Shown: piece after piece, positions 23,282-50,548 of the stretch
How the letters are laid out: every line of letters begins with the position of its first letter
How positions within the stretch are numbered: the stretch's first letter is position 1
Source: Parachlamydiales bacterium
GTDB lineage: Bacteria; Chlamydiota; Chlamydiia; Chlamydiales; JAJFMK01
Length of the DNA stretch: 64,000 bases
Direction of reading: 5' to 3'
NCBI GenBank assembly: GCA_963765145.1
Contig: CAVXVG010000029.1
Span: forward strand, 1-64,000
The notes under the pieces: generated by a model
What the model was told of the DNA's origin: nothing
What the model saw: only the letters and a program-made list of their open reading frames with translations
The model's database searches: none
Program-made: the position numbers and the translations under genes

Positions 23282-25111
23282 TCATGAAGCGGGAAGGTTA
23301 AGCCTTTCTAAAATAGCGTGATTATTATGGAGGGGGGAATCTTCATGGCGCAAGGTGTCTGCAAAGGATTTCCGTTCCTCTTGAGTTTCTAATGAGTCAG
23401 CATAGGTGTTAAGCCAAGTAACTGCCCTATCAAAGACTGAAGGCACTTGGAACATGTCGGCAATGGCTAGCATTTCAGCAGCTGCGTCGACATCTTCAAA
23501 TGTCAAGGAGGAATCGGCAATGTATTTGACAAGGTCTTCAATGGCGCCAGGAGCGATATTTTGCATCGGAGACTGCCCAGCTTGCCATCTGTTTGCCAAA
23601 TAACGAGAGAAATACTCTGAGTGATCCTTAAGCAGTTTTTGATCAAAGGCAGAGAGTGTAGCACTTCCCCTTTTGCCATCTAATTCGCATTCAATGGTTC
23701 GAATCGGTGCTTTCAGCTCTTCCCATGTAATATCGCCTGTTCTATTGAGCCATCCCAACGCTAGCATGGGAGGTAACGTTACCTCTTTCTCCTCATGCGA
23801 GATTGTGAGCATCTCGTCAACCCCTCCCCTTCTTTCTGCCCATTGGTAAAATGCAATAGCCATCAAAAACCTTGGATCTTTGGCTTGAGCTTCAGTTAGC
23901 ACGTTGGCAGCAACTGCAGAGAACTCTATTGAAGCCCGTGTGGAGAACTCAAATCCACTCAGTACCGCACTCTTTTCAAGTTCATTCAACGTAAATATTG
24001 GGCCATTAGGGAAAACCTTAAGGTAAAGTGCTTCTAATTTTTCCCACTCTTGATCCGAAAAGAAAGGGCGTAAAGGCACACGTAGAGAAAATAAAGCTTC
24101 AGAAAGAGATTTACTGACTCCTGGACGGTCAGAATCGAAAAGGTCAGCATTGGCAGGGCAGGACGCGAGATAAAAGGCTAAAATTTTAACAATAAAATCT
24201 GCATGCTGGGAATTTTGATGTACAAATTCTTCTAACCCTTCAAGCGCCATGGCGTTACACCTTTTAAGTGGGTTTGTCAATGACTTAAGACGCAGTAATA
24301 TATAAGCCTTGTCATACAATCCCGACATTGGCACGTCTCTCTCAAGATCACAGTAAATTTTAAGCGCTTCCGGATCAGGAAAACTATCTGCCACTCCTAA
24401 ACAATCGAGCAAGCCATCGCACACCTCTCTTCTCATCCAAATATTATTTCCAATAACACTCGAATAAGCTTTTAAAAAGACTTTAAGTAGAGGGGGGTAA
24501 TTATTTAAATAGGCGATAGCGTTCTGTGGAAAAGTTCTAAAGCCATTTTCGTCAATAAATTCATGCTTAAATTGCGCGCAGAAAGCCTCCATCAATGATA
24601 AAGAAACATAATTATCACACGGTTCTCGGAAAAACCCTTGCATTATAGCATGAATAGAGTCCCGCGACCATCTAGGGGCGACCCTTCCAATAGAATCTAA
24701 GTCTGTTACTGTCAACGATTTGCCTTCAAATAGTTGGTACAAAACATAAGTGCTCCTCTGATTGTTTAGGGTGGAGAAACAATATCGCAATAACTCTAGA
24801 TCTTGCGGATTTGCGTGTAGGACTGTCTCAAGCCTTGTAAAGGCTCTATTGCCACTTTCGATATCGCTATAGGCTTCGGCGTATTTTGGATCAAAATAAG
24901 TATGATAGAGGGTTTTTACATTCGATGCGGCATAGGAGGCTACATTAGTCATCCATTTTGGGAGATAGCCAGAGCTTGTAGGCTCTGCTGACAACGCCTC
25001 CCTAGCAATGTTCTGCACCTCTTGCTGCGAGGCTGGTGGTGTGGGTGTAGTTTCCCCTTCATTGGAAGGTTGGGGAGGCCCAGGTCCTTGAGTAGGTGGT
25101 GTTATGCTCAT
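23282..25111 (-). CDS. C-terminal BTB/POZ-domain effector-like protein (paralog 2)
   Basis: Pro/Ser/Thr-rich N-terminus; LLKDHSEYFSRYLANRW...IEDLVKYI...MLAIADMFQVPSVFDRAVTWL. Confidence 0.75.
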   Translation of the reverse strand: MSITPPTQGPGPPQPSNEGETTPTPPASQQEVQNIAREALSAEPTSSGYLPKWMTNVASYAASNVKTLYHTYFDPKYAEAYSDIESGNRAFTRLETVLHANPQDLELLRYCFSTLNNQRSTYVLYQLFEGKSLTVTDLDSIGRVAPRWSRDSIHAIMQGFFREPCDNYVSLSLMEAFCAQFKHEFIDENGFRTFPQNAIAYLNNYPPLLKVFLKAYSSVIGNNIWMRREVCDGLLDCLGVADSFPDPEALKIYCDLERDVPMSGLYDKAYILLRLKSLTNPLKRCNAMALEGLEEFVHQNSQHADFIVKILAFYLASCPANADLFDSDRPGVSKSLSEALFSLRVPLRPFFSDQEWEKLEALYLKVFPNGPIFTLNELEKSAVLSGFEFSTRASIEFSAVAANVLTEAQAKDPRFLMAIAFYQWAERRGGVDEMLTISHEEKEVTLPPMLALGWLNRTGDITWEELKAPIRTIECELDGKRGSATLSAFDQKLLKDHSEYFSRYLANRWQAGQSPMQNIAPGAIEDLVKYIADSSLTFEDVDAAAEMLAIADMFQVPSVFDRAVTWLNTYADSLETQEERKSFADTLRHEDSPLHNNHAILERLNLPAS

Positions 25112-25186
25112 AAGTCTATCCCACTTTTAATAAATTATAACAAAACAACCATCTTTTAATATTAAGATTCCATTAAAATTAATGAA

Positions 25187-25284
25187 CTCGCGAAGCGTTT
25201 GGAGTGCTAAACTCCTGTTTAGCTTTGACTTATCAATGAAAGTGAAAGCTAAACAGGAGTTTAGCACTCCAAACGCTTCGCGAG
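25187..25284. repeat. Intact (empty) REPIN A
   Basis: Perfect 40-bp arms (ctcgcgaagcgtttggagtgctaaactcctgtttagcttt) around an 18-nt spacer; each arm contains hairpin gctaaac-tcct-gtttagc. Confidence 0.95.
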
Positions 25285-25408: not shown

Positions 25409-27586
25409 TCATGAACCGGGAAGGTTAAGCCTTTCTAAAATAGCGTGATTATTATAGAGGGGGGAATCTTCATGGCGCAAGGAGTCTGCAAAGGATTTCC
25501 GTTCCTCTTGAGTTTCTAATGAGTCAGCATAGGTGTTAAGCCAAGTAACTGCCCTATCAACGACTGAAGGCACTTGGAACATGTCGGCAATGGCTAGCAT
25601 TTCAGCAGCCGCGTCGACATCTTCAAATGTCATGAAGGGATAGGCAAGGTATTTGATAAGGTCTTCGATAGCTCCAGGAGCAATGTTCTGTATCGGAGAC
25701 TGCCCAGCTTGCCATCTGTTTGCCAAATAACGAGAGAAATACTCTGAGTGATCCTTAAGCAGTTTTTGATCAAAGACAGAGAGCGCAGCACTTTCCATTT
25801 TGCCATCCAATTCGCATTCAATGGTTCGAAGCGGCGCTTTCAACTCAGCCCAAGTAATAACGTCAGCTTTATTAAGCCATCCCAAAGCTAGCATGGGGGG
25901 TAATTTCACCTCTGCCCCCTCATACGAGATTGTTAGCATCTCGTCAACCTTTCCCTTTCTTTCAGCCCATTGGTAAAATGCAATAGCCATCAAAAACCTT
26001 GGATCTTTGGCTTGAGCTTCAGTTAGCACGTTGGCAGCAACTGCAGAGAACTCTATTGAAGTCCGTGTGGACAACTCAAATCCAATCAGTACTGCACTCT
26101 TTTCAAGTTCATTCAACTCAAATTCATTCAACGTAAATATTGGACCATTAGGGAAAACCTTAGGATAAAGTGCTTCTAATTTTTCCCACTCTTGATCTGA
26201 AAAGAAAGGACGTAAAGGCACACCCAAAGAAAGCATCTGTTTTAAAAGTGGACCGCACGTATTTAAACGAAGCGTATCGAGAAAGCCAGCAAGAATAGGA
26301 TCGGGCTCAATACGATTAGAGCCCAACTCGATAAGAAAGGCTAAAATTTTAACGACAGAACCTATATGTTGAGGATTCTGATCAGCAAATTTCATCAATC
26401 TTTGCTGTGGCTTTGGCAACCAAAGCATGGGATTTAAATCATTTGGGCTAAACGACGAAATTGGCACTTCTTCTTTAAAGTGATCACAATAAATTTTAAG
26501 GACTTGCAGACCAATTTCTTCCTCATGAGGATTTGAATATATAGCTGTTAAGTTCTCTAATAGGCCATTTAATATTTTATGCGACTGCCATGAATCTTTT
26601 CCTACTTCACTAGAATTGACATCTAAAAAAGCTTTAAGTAGGGAGGGGTTTTTATTTAAATTGATCGCAGCATTTTGCCTAATAAGTTCATATCGATACA
26701 GCCTACAGAAAGTCTCCATCAAGGACGTAGAAGAACTACTCCTACTAAAAAATCCATGTATTGCAGTATCTTTTAAAATGCCCCTATAATCCCAACTTGC
26801 TTTCATTACATCTATGTCTTTTGCTGTTAATGATTTGCTTGCAAACAGACGTTCCCATACTCTGCTGACGCTTGCCTTATCACGATCAAGATTTAGTTTA
26901 AAAATAGCTGCGCTATAGTTCCATAGATCCAGATTAAATGGATTTTCGTGGAGTACTCTTTCAAGCCTGGCAAACATTCTATTTTCATCGCCACTTTTCA
27001 TTTCTTTATGCGCTGAAATGTATTCCAGAAATCGTGCTCTAAAAGCCTCTCTTAGCCCTGGTTGGATCTCTCGTCTTGCGTAAAACGATTCAAATACAGA
27101 TAGAGGGAGAAGTTTCTGAAGTTGAGGATCAGCCTTTATAATTGCATCGAAATCTGCAACAGTCAACTGTGCCTTTCCAAAAAGTATCACAAATGGAGGT
27201 GCAGTTTCTTCATTCATGATGCGGCCTGCAGGAAATAGATTCTCGAAGCAATAACTTAATAGCATTGGATCATATGGGTTTGCATGGAGTACTAACTCTA
27301 GCCTTCTCGCAATAGTTTCTGCATTGCCACTTTCGATATCGCTATAGGCTTCGGCGTATTTTGGATCAAAATAAGTATGATAGAGGGTTTTTACATTCGA
27401 TGCGGCATAGGAGGCTACATTAGTCATCCATTTTGGGAGATAGCCAGAGCTTGTAGGCTCTGCTGACAACGCCTCCCTAGCAATGTTCTGCACCTCTTGC
27501 TGCGAGGCTGGTGGTGTGGCTGTAGTTTCCCCTTCATTGGAAGGTTGGGGAGGCCCAGGTCCTTGAGTAGGTGGTGTTATGCTCAT
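25409..27586 (-). CDS. C-terminal BTB/POZ-domain effector-like protein (paralog 1)
   Basis: First ~88 aa and the BTB region near-identical to paralog 2; carries an extra internal repeat unit. Confidence 0.75.
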   Translation of the reverse strand: MSITPPTQGPGPPQPSNEGETTATPPASQQEVQNIAREALSAEPTSSGYLPKWMTNVASYAASNVKTLYHTYFDPKYAEAYSDIESGNAETIARRLELVLHANPYDPMLLSYCFENLFPAGRIMNEETAPPFVILFGKAQLTVADFDAIIKADPQLQKLLPLSVFESFYARREIQPGLREAFRARFLEYISAHKEMKSGDENRMFARLERVLHENPFNLDLWNYSAAIFKLNLDRDKASVSRVWERLFASKSLTAKDIDVMKASWDYRGILKDTAIHGFFSRSSSSTSLMETFCRLYRYELIRQNAAINLNKNPSLLKAFLDVNSSEVGKDSWQSHKILNGLLENLTAIYSNPHEEEIGLQVLKIYCDHFKEEVPISSFSPNDLNPMLWLPKPQQRLMKFADQNPQHIGSVVKILAFLIELGSNRIEPDPILAGFLDTLRLNTCGPLLKQMLSLGVPLRPFFSDQEWEKLEALYPKVFPNGPIFTLNEFELNELEKSAVLIGFELSTRTSIEFSAVAANVLTEAQAKDPRFLMAIAFYQWAERKGKVDEMLTISYEGAEVKLPPMLALGWLNKADVITWAELKAPLRTIECELDGKMESAALSVFDQKLLKDHSEYFSRYLANRWQAGQSPIQNIAPGAIEDLIKYLAYPFMTFEDVDAAAEMLAIADMFQVPSVVDRAVTWLNTYADSLETQEERKSFADSLRHEDSPLYNNHAILERLNLPGS

Positions 27587-27817
27587 AAGTCTATCCCACT
27601 TTTAATAAATTATAACAAAACAACCATCTTTTAATATTAAGATTCCATTAAAATTAATGAACTCGCGAAGCGTTTGGAGTTCTCTAATTGCGTTTCTAGG
27701 CAAGCATGATTTTTTCTCTTTCCCCTTCCTAAGCCGAGGGGGTTTGGGGGATACTTCCCCCAAGATAATTGACAACTTCCTCTATGGGCTTCCAAAGCTT
27801 GATCGTAAAAAATAAAA

Positions 27818-27978
27818 TTCTAACTCGGTCATAGTTCTCTCCGGGGTCCTTTTTATTGAAGATTTCGGCCTTATTAGCTGATCTTCAGCCCCAACATACT
27901 TTCCAAAAGAAACAAGGTAAGACAATGTGCTACACGACGTCTTATTAGCGTCAACTCCAAAGCGTCTTAACCTTATTT
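27818..27978 (-). ncRNA. Predicted bridge RNA/seekRNA of IS copy 1
   Basis: Reverse complement of 50194-50354, with the same four guide segments. Confidence 0.75.
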
Positions 27979-28049
27979 CGAACTCGTATTTGAATCTTTT
28001 TTCTTACTCTCTCTGCTCTTTCGCTCTTTGAGAACTTTTTTAACTTTTC

Positions 28050-29150
28050 TTAAGCAGCCATCTGCTTTGATTTTTTCTTCTCTTTCCGACTTGGCTTGGT
28101 TACTTTATCAATTTCTTTTTTCTCGACTTCACCAGCTTCAAATGGTTTACCTTCTGTCCACATTCGATGCATTATCACACCAAGCTTCCGACCAAGGGCA
28201 ACTATAGCTTTTTTATGCCCATGCTTCTTATTGATCTTTAGCCCAAAAACTTTGGCTCTACTCCATGTTTTGCATCGATACATCATGCTCATGGCGGCAT
28301 CAGATAGCAGCGCTCTGAGTTCATTTGATCCAATCTTTGTTATTTTCCCCTGATGCTCGGTTTCACCTGAACTATACTGCCTTGGAGTCATCCCAACATA
28401 TGCTCCAACTGACCTCGATCGTGTGAATCTTTTTGGGTCTCCAATTTCAACCTTATAGCTCACTGCAGTTACGATCCCTACACCAGGAACTGTCATTAGC
28501 AGCTGAACGACTTCGTCATTCTTTCCTATGTCTTCGATCTTCTTGTCTATTTCATCTACTAGTTTGTGAAGTTGAGAAAAGGTTACTAAAAGTGCACGAA
28601 TGCCCATTGCGACCTCTTCAGGTTGATCTTGTATCGACTCTGTTACCTTCTCTATGAAGTTCTTTTGACTACTACTAGACCCTAAAAAAAGCTTTCCACA
28701 ACATCTCAAAGTACCGCGGATACAGTTACTCGTCATGGTTCTTTGTATCACCAGATTGCGTCGGATGTTTAAGAGACTTTTGATGCTCATATTTGTATCG
28801 TTTTTTTGATAGACCTCTTGAAAGTAGCCAGTCCGAAGGGCGTTTGCGATTTCCCTCGCATCGTTTTTGTCTGTTTTATTGGCTTTGATTGCGATGGCGG
28901 CAGCCATTTTGCGAGAGTCGATACATATCGCTGGAAGGTCAAGCTCTTGAAGTTCTTGAACAAGCCATCGGCTTGTTCCACCAGCTTCAATTGCTATAGC
29001 TTCAATAGTGAGCTTGGTCGTCTTGATCGCAGTTGCGATAGCTAAAGGGTCAGTAGCGGCTGTCATCTCTCGGATGATCTTACCATCTTGAGCCATGATG
29101 CAGATGGCAGTAGTTTTCAAAGATACGTCTAAACCGATATAATGTTTCAT
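28050..29150 (-). CDS. IS110-family recombinase/transposase (intact)
   Basis: RuvC-like DEDD motifs IGLDVS, IEAG and KTDKNDA; C-terminal PGVG and YSSG (catalytic Ser). Confidence 0.95.
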   Translation of the reverse strand: MKHYIGLDVSLKTTAICIMAQDGKIIREMTAATDPLAIATAIKTTKLTIEAIAIEAGGTSRWLVQELQELDLPAICIDSRKMAAAIAIKANKTDKNDAREIANALRTGYFQEVYQKNDTNMSIKSLLNIRRNLVIQRTMTSNCIRGTLRCCGKLFLGSSSSQKNFIEKVTESIQDQPEEVAMGIRALLVTFSQLHKLVDEIDKKIEDIGKNDEVVQLLMTVPGVGIVTAVSYKVEIGDPKRFTRSRSVGAYVGMTPRQYSSGETEHQGKITKIGSNELRALLSDAAMSMMYRCKTWSRAKVFGLKINKKHGHKKAIVALGRKLGVIMHRMWTEGKPFEAGEVEKKEIDKVTKPSRKEKKKSKQMAA

Positions 29151-29353
29151 TGGGCTGTTCTCCTGTATTGCTTGCTTAGGCTACCAAGCCAAAGCCTGGA
29201 GAGTCTAGTACTACTCCGTGGGGTTTTTAAAACCCTCCTAGAACAGCCCATTTTCTTACCGGCTAAGCTCTGAAGCGCAATTACAGTATGTGCTAAACTC
29301 CTGTTTAGCTTTGACTTATCAATGAAAGTGAAAGCTAAACAGGAGTTTAGCAC

Positions 29354-29632
29354 GGCCTTGTTGCATAATTGCACGTGATTCCCCGTTTCTCCTGCAGCCC
29401 TTCAGGCTGCCATATAAAGTTTCATCCTAAACCCGGGGCGTTGCCCACGGGCTGTTGCAATTTTGGCCTTTCAGGCCAAGGGAAAAGCCTGTATTGCTAG
29501 GATTTTCCGGCTGAAAGCCGGATAGTTGCAACAGCCCGCGGGCAACGCCCCGGGTTAAGTTGGAGAATAAAATTGGCAGCCTGTAAGGCTGCAGGAGTAG
29601 AGAAACGTTGCGAACAATTATGCAACAACGCC
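29354..29632. mobile_element. MITE B (IS903-like ends) with hairpin cargo 29389-29597, in the other arm of the same REPIN A
   Basis: ggccttgttgcataatt...aattatgcaacaacgcc flanked by 9-bp direct repeat gtttagcac. Confidence 0.85.
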
Positions 29633-29669
29633 GTTTAGCACTCCAAACGCTTCGCGAAATAATAAGTTT

Positions 29670-40427: not shown

Positions 40428-40918
40428 CGCGAAGCGTTTGGAGTGCTAAACGGCCTTGTTGCATAATTCAATTTCTAATTAAAAAATGTAGCTTAGGCTT
40501 TAGAGGCACTTGCAAAAATCAGAATAAACTCTGATAAAGCCCTTAACATCTCTTAAGAGTTCTTGGTTACAAGATAAAAATAACAGGATGAACAGGGTGA
40601 ACAGGATAAGCTTCGCCAACAAAATGATTTCTATTTTCAAAATGATAAAGCTAGGCGGAGCTATCCTGTCGCTCGATGAGCGATCCTGTTCATCCTGTTT
40701 AATTTATAGGAAGCTTTTCCTTAGGTTAATGCAATACATAAGGGTCTATTGTGATCTGGAGTCCGATTTTTGCAAGTGTCTCTTTAGCCTGAGCTACAAT
40801 ATTTGTCCAAATTATGCTTAATTATGCAACAAGGCCGTGCTCCTGAGCCCGTTTAGCCTTTCACTTTCACAGATCAGTCAAAGCTAAACGGGCTCAGGAG
40901 CACTCCAAACGCTTCGCG
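40428..40918. repeat. Nested element: REPIN A [MITE B 40452-40836 [collapsed C 40487-40798 [MITE D 40503-40782 [aacaggatg-repeat hairpin]]]]
   Basis: Same terminal motifs as 2465-2920; B/C junction sequences are the reverse complement of those at 2547-2893; TTTA duplication around D. Confidence 0.9.
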
Positions 40919-46739: not shown

Positions 46740-46979
46740 CGCGAAGCGTTTGGAGTGCTAAACGGCGTTGTTGCACAATCAAATAGAATTCGCATACACA
46801 TTGTAGCTTAGGCTTTAGCCTGAGCTCGTTTTGCAGGACTTTAGTCCTGCTAGAAGCTTGCGGGTTAAAACCCGCAAAAACGAACTCAGGCTAAAGCCTA
46901 AGCTACATTTCTCATGATGGCGATTAATTATGCAACAACGCCGTGCTAAACAGGAGTTTAGCACTCCAAACGCTTCGCG
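46740..46979. repeat. Nested element: collapsed REPIN A [MITE B 46764-46942 [REPIN C 46802-46907]]
   Basis: 9-bp duplication gtgctaaac around ggcgttgttgca...tgcaacaacgcc; complete C inside. Confidence 0.9.
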
Positions 46980-48770: not shown

Positions 48771-49020
48771 ATGATCAAATTGAAGTCACTACACTTTTAC
48801 AACGCGAAGCGTTTGGAGTGCTAAACTCCTGTTTAGCTTTGACTTATCAGTGAAAGTGAAAGCTAAACAGGAGTTTAGCACATACTGTAATTGCGCTTCA
48901 GAGCTTAGCCGGTAAGAAAATGGGCTGTTCTAGGAGGGTTTTAAAAACCCCACGGAGTAGTACTAGACTCTCCAGGCTTTGGCTTGGTAGCCTAAGCAAG
49001 CAATACAGGAGAACAGCCCA

Positions 49021-50122
49021 ATGAAACATTATATCGGTTTAGACGTATCTTTGAAAACTACTGCCATCTGCATCATGGCTCAAGATGGTAAGATCATCCG
49101 AGAGATGACAGCCGCTACTGACCCTTTAGCTATCGCAACTGCGATCAAGACGACCAAGCTCACTATTGAAGCTATAGCAATTGAAGCTGGTGGAACAAGC
49201 CGATGGCTTGTTCAAGAACTTCAAGAGCTTGACCTTCCAGCGATATGTATCGACTCTCGCAAAATGGCTGCCGCCATCGCAATCAAAGCCAATAAAACAG
49301 ACAAAAACGATGCGAGGGAAATCGCAAACGCCCTTCGGACTGGCTACTTTCAAGAGGTCTATCAAAAAAACGATACAAATATGAGCATCAAAAGTCTCTT
49401 AAACATCCGACGCAATCTGGTGATACAAAGAACCATGACGAGTAACTGTATCCGCGGTACTTTGAGATGTTGTGGAAAGCTTTTTTTAGGGTCTAGTAGT
49501 AGTCAAAAGAACTTCATAGAGAAGGTAACAGAGTCGATACAAGATCAACCTGAAGAGGTCGCAATGGGCATTCGTGCACTTTTAGTAACCTTTTCTCAAC
49601 TTCACAAACTAGTAGATGAAATAGACAAGAAGATCGAAGACATAGGAAAGAGATGACGAAGTCGTTCAGCTGCTAATGACAGTTCCTGGTGTAGGGATCG
49701 TAACTGCAGTGAGCTATAAGGTTGAAATTGGAGACCCAAAAAGATTCACACGATCGAGGTCAGTTGGAGCATATGTTGGGATGACTCCAAGGCAGTATAG
49801 TTCAGGTGAAACCGAGCATCAGGGGAAAATAACAAAGATTGGATCAAATGAACTCAGAGCGCTGCTATCTGATGCCGCCATGAGCATGATGTATCGATGC
49901 AAAACATGGAGTAGAGCCAAAGTTTTTGGGCTAAAGATCAATAAGAAGCATGGGCATAAAAAAGCTATAGTTGCCCTTGGTCGGAAGCTTGGTGTGATAA
50001 TGCATCGAATGTGGACAGAAGGTAAACCATTTGAAGCTGGTGAAGTCGAGAAAAAAGAAATTGATAAAGTAACCAAGCCAAGTCGGAAAGAGAAGAAAAA
50101 ATCAAAGCAGATGGCTGCTTAA
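49021..50122 (+). pseudogene. IS110 recombinase with +1 frameshift near 49652
   Basis: Matches 28050-29150 apart from ggaaagagatgac versus ggaaagaatgac (may be a read error). Confidence 0.8.
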
Positions 50123-50193
50123 GAAAAGTTAAAAAAGTTCTCAAAGAGCGAAAGAGCAGAGAGAGTAAGAAAAAAGATTCAAATACGAGTTCG

Positions 50194-50354
50194 AAATAAG
50201 GTTAAGACGCTTTGGAGTTGACGCTAATAAGACGTCGTGTAGCACATTGTCTTACCTTGTTTCTTTTGGAAAGTATGTTGGGGCTGAAGATCAGCTAATA
50301 AGGCCGAAATCTTCAATAAAAAGGACCCCGGAGAGAACTATGACCGAGTTAGAA
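50194..50354 (+). ncRNA. Predicted bridge RNA/seekRNA of IS copy 2 (target-binding loop then donor-binding loop)
   Basis: Target guides tttggagt (50211-18) and tagcac (50240-45); donor guides agtatgt (50272-78) and agagaac (50332-38); each pair sits in an internal loop closed by stems. Confidence 0.8.
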
Positions 50355-50548
50355 TTTTATTTTTTACGATCAAGCTTTGGAAGCCCATAGAGGAAGTTGT
50401 CAATTATCTTGGGGGAAGTATCCCCCAAACCCCCTCGGCTTAGGAAGGGGAAAGAGAAAAAATCATGCTTGCCTAGAAACGCAATTAGAGAACTCCAAAC
50501 GCTTCGCGAAGGCAGAATTCTCTGCACGCTGGTTAAATTATGTTTTAG

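Follow-up and report, generated by a model that had tools for sequence, protein, structure and literature searches.

REP sequences are hot spots for several insertion sequences (IS) (PMC1525189), and IS621, ISPa11 and ISPpu9/10 insert at fixed places within them (PMC1525189, PMC12288879). For ISPpu9, ISPpu10, ISPsy8, ISRm19 and ISRm22, all from Proteobacteria, specific insertion into REP sequences was described before the RNA guide was known (PMC1525189). IS621, an IS110-group element of E. coli, is reported in PMC11208160 and PMC11208158 to possess a 2-bp CT core, inverted repeats of 2-3 bp and a bridge RNA in the left end with separate target and donor guides, and to insert into REP elements (144 of 173 sites in its assay). 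ISPa11 of Pseudomonas aeruginosa, a member of the IS1111 group, is described in PMC11187229 with a DEDD transposase, subterminal inverted repeats, a 3' non-coding end in which the top-strand match comes first, and a fixed position in a REP repeat.

The element described here lies twice in a 64,000-nucleotide stretch of DNA from a Parachlamydiales bacterium (hereafter the window). Within the genome itself, a match to Hc1 (4.9e-19) and a sub-threshold one to OmcB point to a chlamydial host. It shares with IS621 the 2-bp core, the separate guides and insertion into a REP-type repeat, whereas its predicted RNA region is in the right end and its core is AC. All of the ISPa11 features listed above are also found, in another host phylum and with other repeat and guide sequences. 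The elements of PMC11187229 usually have inverted repeats of 11-13 bp with extensions of 7 and 3 nt, compared with 8 bp perfect and 12 nt between them here, and their RNA has been demonstrated, whereas ours is predicted only. Specific insertion into REP sequences is shared, in turn, with the ISPpu9-type elements. The host repeat resembles those of REPIN-RAYT systems (bioRxiv 10.1101/2021.07.10.451892) in its inverted arms, variable spacer, length of about 100 bp, extragenic position and high copy number; it differs in that no RAYT gene lies beside it in this assembly, and chlamydiae are not mentioned in that source.

A literature search covering mainly open-access main texts yielded no publication that deals with this element or with IS targeting REP sequences in chlamydiae, which in PMC3733652 appear in a reference only; a closer relative could be present in the supplementary ISfinder lists. 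Since 2024, RNA-guided elements of the IS110 family that target REP-type repeats have been ordinary, and the present one is a clear new example of a known mechanism, not a new mechanism. What makes it valuable is the clean set of natural data that it provides: the members of a clade within a chlamydial order share an AC core and a fixed scaffold and carry 15-19 distinct natural guides among them. The clade displays target reprogramming directly and donor reprogramming more rarely, and offers candidate compact recombinases for testing.

Anatomy of the element

The coordinates of the features are collected in Table 1. The 366-aa protein of copy 1 carries the domains of the IS110 family in the broad sense (PF01548, 4e-17; PF02371, 4e-24) and matches profile NF033542 with 239.5 bits (cut-off 140). 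The only named IS among the 25 best plasmid matches listed is an ISMno22-family transposase (NC_011887.1), which is distant (40% identity over 93% of the protein). About 370 bp of non-coding DNA lie downstream of the recombinase gene, compared with about 140 bp upstream. The subterminal inverted repeats, perfect over 8 bp here and 7-13 bp long in 23 related ends, may be set beside the 7-17 bp given for the IS1111 group in PMC11208160 and the 7 (or 6) and 3 bp by which, according to PMC11187229, the ends extend beyond the repeats. The junction spacing between the perfect repeats amounts to 6 + 2 (core) + 4 = 12 nt, a count that depends on how the repeats are drawn, as they can be extended by 3 bp with one mismatch. 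Judged by sequence, this layout is the IS1111 layout set out in PMC11187229 and PMC11208160, and the group is assigned by layout.

When the IS ends are joined, they form TTGCCT-18 nt-CATACT, a predicted -35/-10 pair. A junction promoter with at least 4/6 matches in both hexamers is found in 14 of 23 elements, this one included. A linear promoter scan of copy 2 gave no + strand promoter, as expected if the promoter forms on the circle only. A GGGGG...CCCCC hairpin box is located near the right end of the IS (27727-27765 in copy 1, 50407-50445 in copy 2), and is present in some relatives too.

Table 1. Features of the two IS copies, their host repeats and neighbouring elements (window coordinates unless a contig is given)
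Feature	Position	Strand	Remarks
IS copy 1, IS1111-type	27679..29291	-	includes both AC cores; 1611 bp core to core
AC cores of copy 1	27679-27680 and 29290-29291
DEDD recombinase, intact, 366 aa	28050..29150	-	D8, E55, D94, D97; S261 in SG motif
Left subterminal inverted repeat TAATTGCG	29276..29283	-	6 nt inside core
Right subterminal inverted repeat CGCAATTA	27685..27692	-	4 nt inside core
Predicted bridge/seekRNA region, 3' non-coding end	27822..28001	-	limits from alignment, not mapped RNA ends
Predicted right-target guide TTTGGAGT	27954..27961 (copy 1); 50211-50218 (copy 2)	-; +	complement of core + TCCAAA
Predicted left-target guide TAGCAC	27927..27932 (copy 1); 50240-50245 (copy 2)	-; +	same sense as TAGC + core
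Predicted right-donor guide AGTATGT	27894..27900 (copy 1); 50272-50278 (copy 2)	-; +	complement of core + ATACT (element left end)
Predicted left-donor guide AGAGAAC	27834..27840 (copy 1); 50332-50338 (copy 2)	-; +	same sense as element right end + core
Outer part of left arm of palindromic repeat, split off by IS	27662..27680	.
Inner arms and spacer of copy 1's host repeat	29290..29353	.
279-bp IS903-like MITE in right arm	29354..29632	.	other palindrome family inside
Flanking copies of GTTTAGCAC around 279-bp MITE	29345-29353 and 29633-29641
Outer part of right arm, intact target site	29633..29657	.
Empty paralogous repeat	25187..25284	.	98-nt near-perfect hairpin, z -16.6; two intact targets
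IS copy 2	48880..50493	+
AC cores of copy 2	48880-48881 and 50492-50493
Recombinase ORFs of copy 2	49021-49656 and 49676-50122	+	frameshifted near 49652
Repeat hosting copy 2	48803..48881	.	outer right end at 50492-50508
CTCC-bracketed elements (examples)	C2 80636-80814; C5 10374-10556; C5 28749-28938; C29 167644-167694; others

Insertion sites within the palindromic repeat

The first-pass annotation held that both window copies had struck one dinucleotide of a palindromic repeat, and this was borne out: each reads tagc-AC, element, AC-tccaaa, with only the 2-bp core repeated, and the asymmetric spacer places the two copies in opposite arms of the palindrome. A BLAST search with the whole element against the 2.68-Mb assembly (37 contigs, 84.8% complete) yielded five full copies and one 38-bp match. 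Alignment of the flanks of all copies genome-wide placed the three full copies outside the window (C18, C27 and C29:153240) at the same dinucleotide, as is the C21 remnant represented by the short match, so that none of these copies lies elsewhere. In element orientation, the target common to the five full copies is TTTAGC-AC, element, AC-TCCAAACG. Insertion is thus site-specific around a short core without true target duplication, AC alone being repeated in 5/5 copies. The C21 remnant consists of the last ~36 bp of the IS right end with the usual right flank (about 174134-174181), its left side being fused to the interior of a MITE at a near-identical 8-mer. This suggests that the solo end is the scar of a sixth insertion later lost by deletion.

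The repeat, which has two inverted arms and a less conserved spacer with several variants, is both abundant and extragenic. The assembly contains 175 intact GTTTAGCACTCCAAACG sites (0.0002 expected under a 3rd-order Markov model), and the window exactly nine, the earlier estimate having been about nine. Its description as a multi-copy landing pad, almost wholly intergenic, is likewise upheld: 170 of the 175 intact sites lie outside long ORFs (at least 150 aa), which together cover 77% of the assembly, and all five full copies use the repeat.

The five full copies differ at only two alignment columns and are, for that reason, considered recent; one of these columns is the single extra base that frameshifts copy 2. 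Their host repeats, on the other hand, differ in the arm used, the spacer and the outer end (CTTCGCG or CGTTGCG), and that of the C27 copy is a lone half-repeat with no partner arm within 100 nt. We therefore regard the copies as separate insertions. Within the genome, any preference for TAGC arms over other arm variants would be weak, TAGC being present in 5/5 filled sites compared with 177/307 unfilled ends.

An empty repeat unit close to copy 1 (25187-25284) had been taken for the pre-insertion allele of that site. The exact IS ends can indeed be read from it, as they could from any of the 175 empty sites. The unit is, however, a paralog located before a tandem gene duplicate rather than an allele, and the copy-1 site is further distinguished from it by a second insertion, the 279-bp IS903-like MITE. 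Removal of the IS alone from the copy-1 site gives a unit identical for 85 nt (25183-25267), whereas the full 101-nt identity to the control requires removal of the IS, the MITE and one copy of the 9-bp duplication. Contigs from a public run (X3) cover the left flank and the repeat and leave the IS uncovered; no contig joins cleanly across, and this run therefore provides no evidence of an empty allele. The public runs contain at most 0.17 of the stretch's words.

The tandem paralogs near copy 1 are ORFs of 609 aa (23282-25111) and 725 aa (25409-27586) with weak C-terminal BTB matches. They are almost identical over 350 bp at the 5' end and in the upstream repeat, and diverged elsewhere; on their sequences, the pair is a recent duplication or conversion tract. 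The longer paralog is set 1.9 kb apart from its upstream DNA by the IS and the MITE.

Predicted guides and their covariation with flanking DNA

Four stretches in the 346-nt 3' end match both halves of the target and both halves of the element's own junction. A non-coding end that matches both strands of target and donor is an IS110-family trait, which the predicted RNA possesses. The top-strand target match lies 5' of the bottom-strand match (50211-50218 before 50240-50245 in copy 2), which is the IS1111 order according to PMC11187229. In 20000 dinucleotide shuffles of this region the right-target, left-target, right-donor and left-donor motifs, which were picked after inspection, occurred 279, 334, 173 and 1610 times, respectively, and the two target matches together in none. 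In the consensus fold of the scaffold, 13 of the 18 predicted pairs show compensatory changes and the guides are not paired; the single-sequence fold is only modestly stable (z -2.1), with part of both target guides paired. Rfam returned nothing on the 3' end, and on the palindrome only sub-threshold microRNA hairpin matches.

The 12-nt stretch read by the two target guides, TAGC-AC-TCCAAA (TAGCACTCCAAA), occurs 178 times in the assembly, and in 177 of these it continues as a repeat end. That this match is almost confined to the repeat, once per arm, explains why the insertion point is constant and why either arm can serve, and the guide alone would therefore account for the landing pad. Most likely, then, the predicted guide RNA in the 3' end supplies the mechanism behind it.

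To examine whether guides and flanks change together, we turned to related elements. A search of 401 genomes from the order to which this one belongs recovered the recombinase in 35, this genome included (E<=1e-30). Thirty-one loci were inspected, and the 22 that gave anchors were aligned; the nine loci without anchors were left out (L020, L032, L048, L059, L060, L062, L067, L070 and L072). The alignment determined the guide columns, which were scored against the flanks of the element in question at the five positions adjoining the core (four in the case of the right donor); rows with cut flanks were dropped (left: L019, L051, L071; right: L049, L050). The left target gave 84/95 matches (n=19, shuffled mean 32.0), the right target 82/100 (n=20, shuffled mean 28.4) and the right donor 70/72 (n=18, shuffled mean 53.8), values reached in 0/20000 permutations in each case; the left donor gave 35/35 over n=7 distinct pairs (shuffled mean 30.4), a value reached in 493/20000. 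As the relatives are kin, these permutation counts overstate independence, yet the sets comprise 15 and 19 distinct guides. Poor fits are L063 on both sides and L058 on its right side; the rows of L052 and L055 are out of register. Within the right-donor guide, the two RNA bases opposite the core are not conserved. Donor reprogramming is rare: in L058 and L071 a changed right end of the element is accompanied by a matching change in the left-donor guide (GGGAAC, AGGAAC).

Two of the left-out elements, from G053 and G031, fit by eye. The relative in G053 (L018, L032, L036, L039, L041, L043, L044, L046) is 46% identical, and the 34 matches counted in that 1.9-Mb genome include many that are broken or interrupted by other IS; its target is the AT-rich ATATAC|TCGTTT. 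In G031 (L020, L033) the flanks form a different inverted repeat, and the left guide matches 8/8. L048 (G200:C3) and L052 (G192:C145) also have the right-target guide TTTTGGAGT, with left guides TCGCAC and GAGTCAC; they are perhaps aimed at variants of the same repeat end. Single-protein scans of genome and metagenome collections gave matches of 26-35% identity only, while a homolog search returned proteins up to 68% identical, with no DNA context. In the family's three other genomes there was no exact match to the 16-mer target.

We considered, and rejected, a general targeting of palindromes by the clade. An inverted arm of at least 20 nt is found nearby in only 2 of 17 rebuilt sites (this element and L058), although the G031 site appears palindromic on inspection; palindrome targeting is therefore a property of this guide.

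We consider it highly probable that this IS1111-type element is directed to one AC of the 175-copy repeat by a predicted bridge/seekRNA pairing with both strands of the site and with the element's own joined ends. The element would excise as a circle, as in IS621 and ISEc11/ISPa11 (PMC11208160, PMC11208158, PMC11187229), and its joined ends would create the TTGCCT-18 nt-CATACT promoter. RNA from the 3' end would then load the DEDD/serine recombinase, and recombination across the shared AC would insert the circle, so that AC would be the core and not a target duplication. While these steps are modelled on IS621 and ISEc11/ISPa11, the element ends, the 2-bp core, the fidelity to one site, the four guide matches and their covariation with the flanks are observed in this element and its relatives. 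With targets that are numerous and intergenic, the repeat would be a landing pad of low cost, which is the likely reason that this guide spread.

It might be argued that the recombinase, a host protein or a RAYT protein recognizes the hairpin or its sequence directly, the 3'-end matches being at most minor. Indeed, the repeat forms an extremely stable hairpin, and at least three other element kinds, including the IS903-like one for which no guide is known, lie no further than about 12 bp from that arm; the site could therefore be attractive to insertions in its own right. Related elements that share the scaffold, however, occupy unrelated sites in agreement with their own guides. Long inverted arms are, moreover, rare among the rebuilt sites, and the C27 copy lies in a lone half-repeat, all of which renders direct recognition quite improbable. 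Still further from the data is the notion that all copies descend from a single ancestral insertion, multiplied as cassettes of repeat plus IS through duplication, gene conversion, RAYT activity or misassembly, in which case the copies would not be independent. The near-identity of the copies, the recent tandem duplication in the region and the division of the assembly into 37 contigs would all suit this scenario, but it is largely refuted by the differences between host repeats, the lone half among them, and the unique flanks differ immediately past the repeat; we give it almost no credence. Guidance by the predicted RNA is hence the reading that we retain.

Other elements in the same arm and RAYT genes

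The three further kinds of element in the arm differ in type. A second IS110-family element, present in one copy (C25:31093-32619, L045) and encoding a protein 27% identical, lies at the same dinucleotide in the opposite orientation, and its 3' end carries guide-like TTTGGAGT and GCGCAC. IS903-like ends, a label that we presume from the shape of the end repeat, number 96 genome-wide (in the window, 29354-29632, 2547-2893, 40452-40836 and 46764-46942). Equal 9-bp flanks are found in 21 of 33 end pairs, and 17 of the 33 have the exact repeat 9-mer GTTTAGCAC; a long member encodes a DDE_Tnp_1_5 protein. The IS903-like elements comprise MITEs and longer members; their 9-bp duplication is for the most part this 9-mer, and several of them carry other palindrome families inside. 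The third kind is a CTCC-bracketed family with 16 right ends, 13 of which have a left end 45-215 bp away, mostly in the same arm. Its bracket lies one base to the right of the IS core, an internal CACAGAG-type palindrome is common, and no autonomous partner for it was found.

A broader proposal would see in this 12-bp stretch of arm a convergence point of four unrelated lineages: two IS1111-type elements (27% identity) independently programmed from opposite strands to one dinucleotide, an IS903-like element that gained a fixed 9-bp site, and the orphan 45-215 bp CTCC family. Transposases of different chemistry would be recruited by a property of the repeat (the foot of an extruded hairpin, or a protein bound there, either RAYT or host), and the orphan family would depend for its movement on an uncharacterised enzyme acting in trans, RNA-guided or RAYT-dependent. 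Taken as a whole, we hold this proposal to be rather unlikely. One repeat arm common to several kinds of element does permit a test of whether REP hot spots arise from independent selection of safe sites or from a physical property.

The name REPIN appears a fair one, and it rests on RAYT genes beside the same ends in other genomes, the cognate RAYT not having been found in this assembly. None of the six Y1-transposase genes of the assembly (84.8% complete) has a repeat end in its locus (as much as 1.5 kb to either side of the gene), and with the RAYT of a relative as query no match better than E 0.015 was obtained. The 13-mer end of the repeat is abundant in 4 of 400 other genomes (63-235 copies). 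Genomes rich in the repeat include G163, G228, G298 and G389. In two genomes (G228 and G304), proteins over the cut-off of the RAYT-family profile NF047646 are flanked by the same repeat ends, and in G389 a close RAYT homolog lies at a contig start with repeat ends downstream.

Four of the Y1 genes of the present assembly, L002 (C21:219036), L003 (C24:56771), L005 (C5:119344) and L006 (C28:46907), have flanking inverted repeats that belong to other palindrome families, three at least; the gene on C28 appears to be frameshifted. In G304 (L098:700-950), an extra copy of the RAYT 3' tip together with its repeat is located upstream of the RAYT gene.
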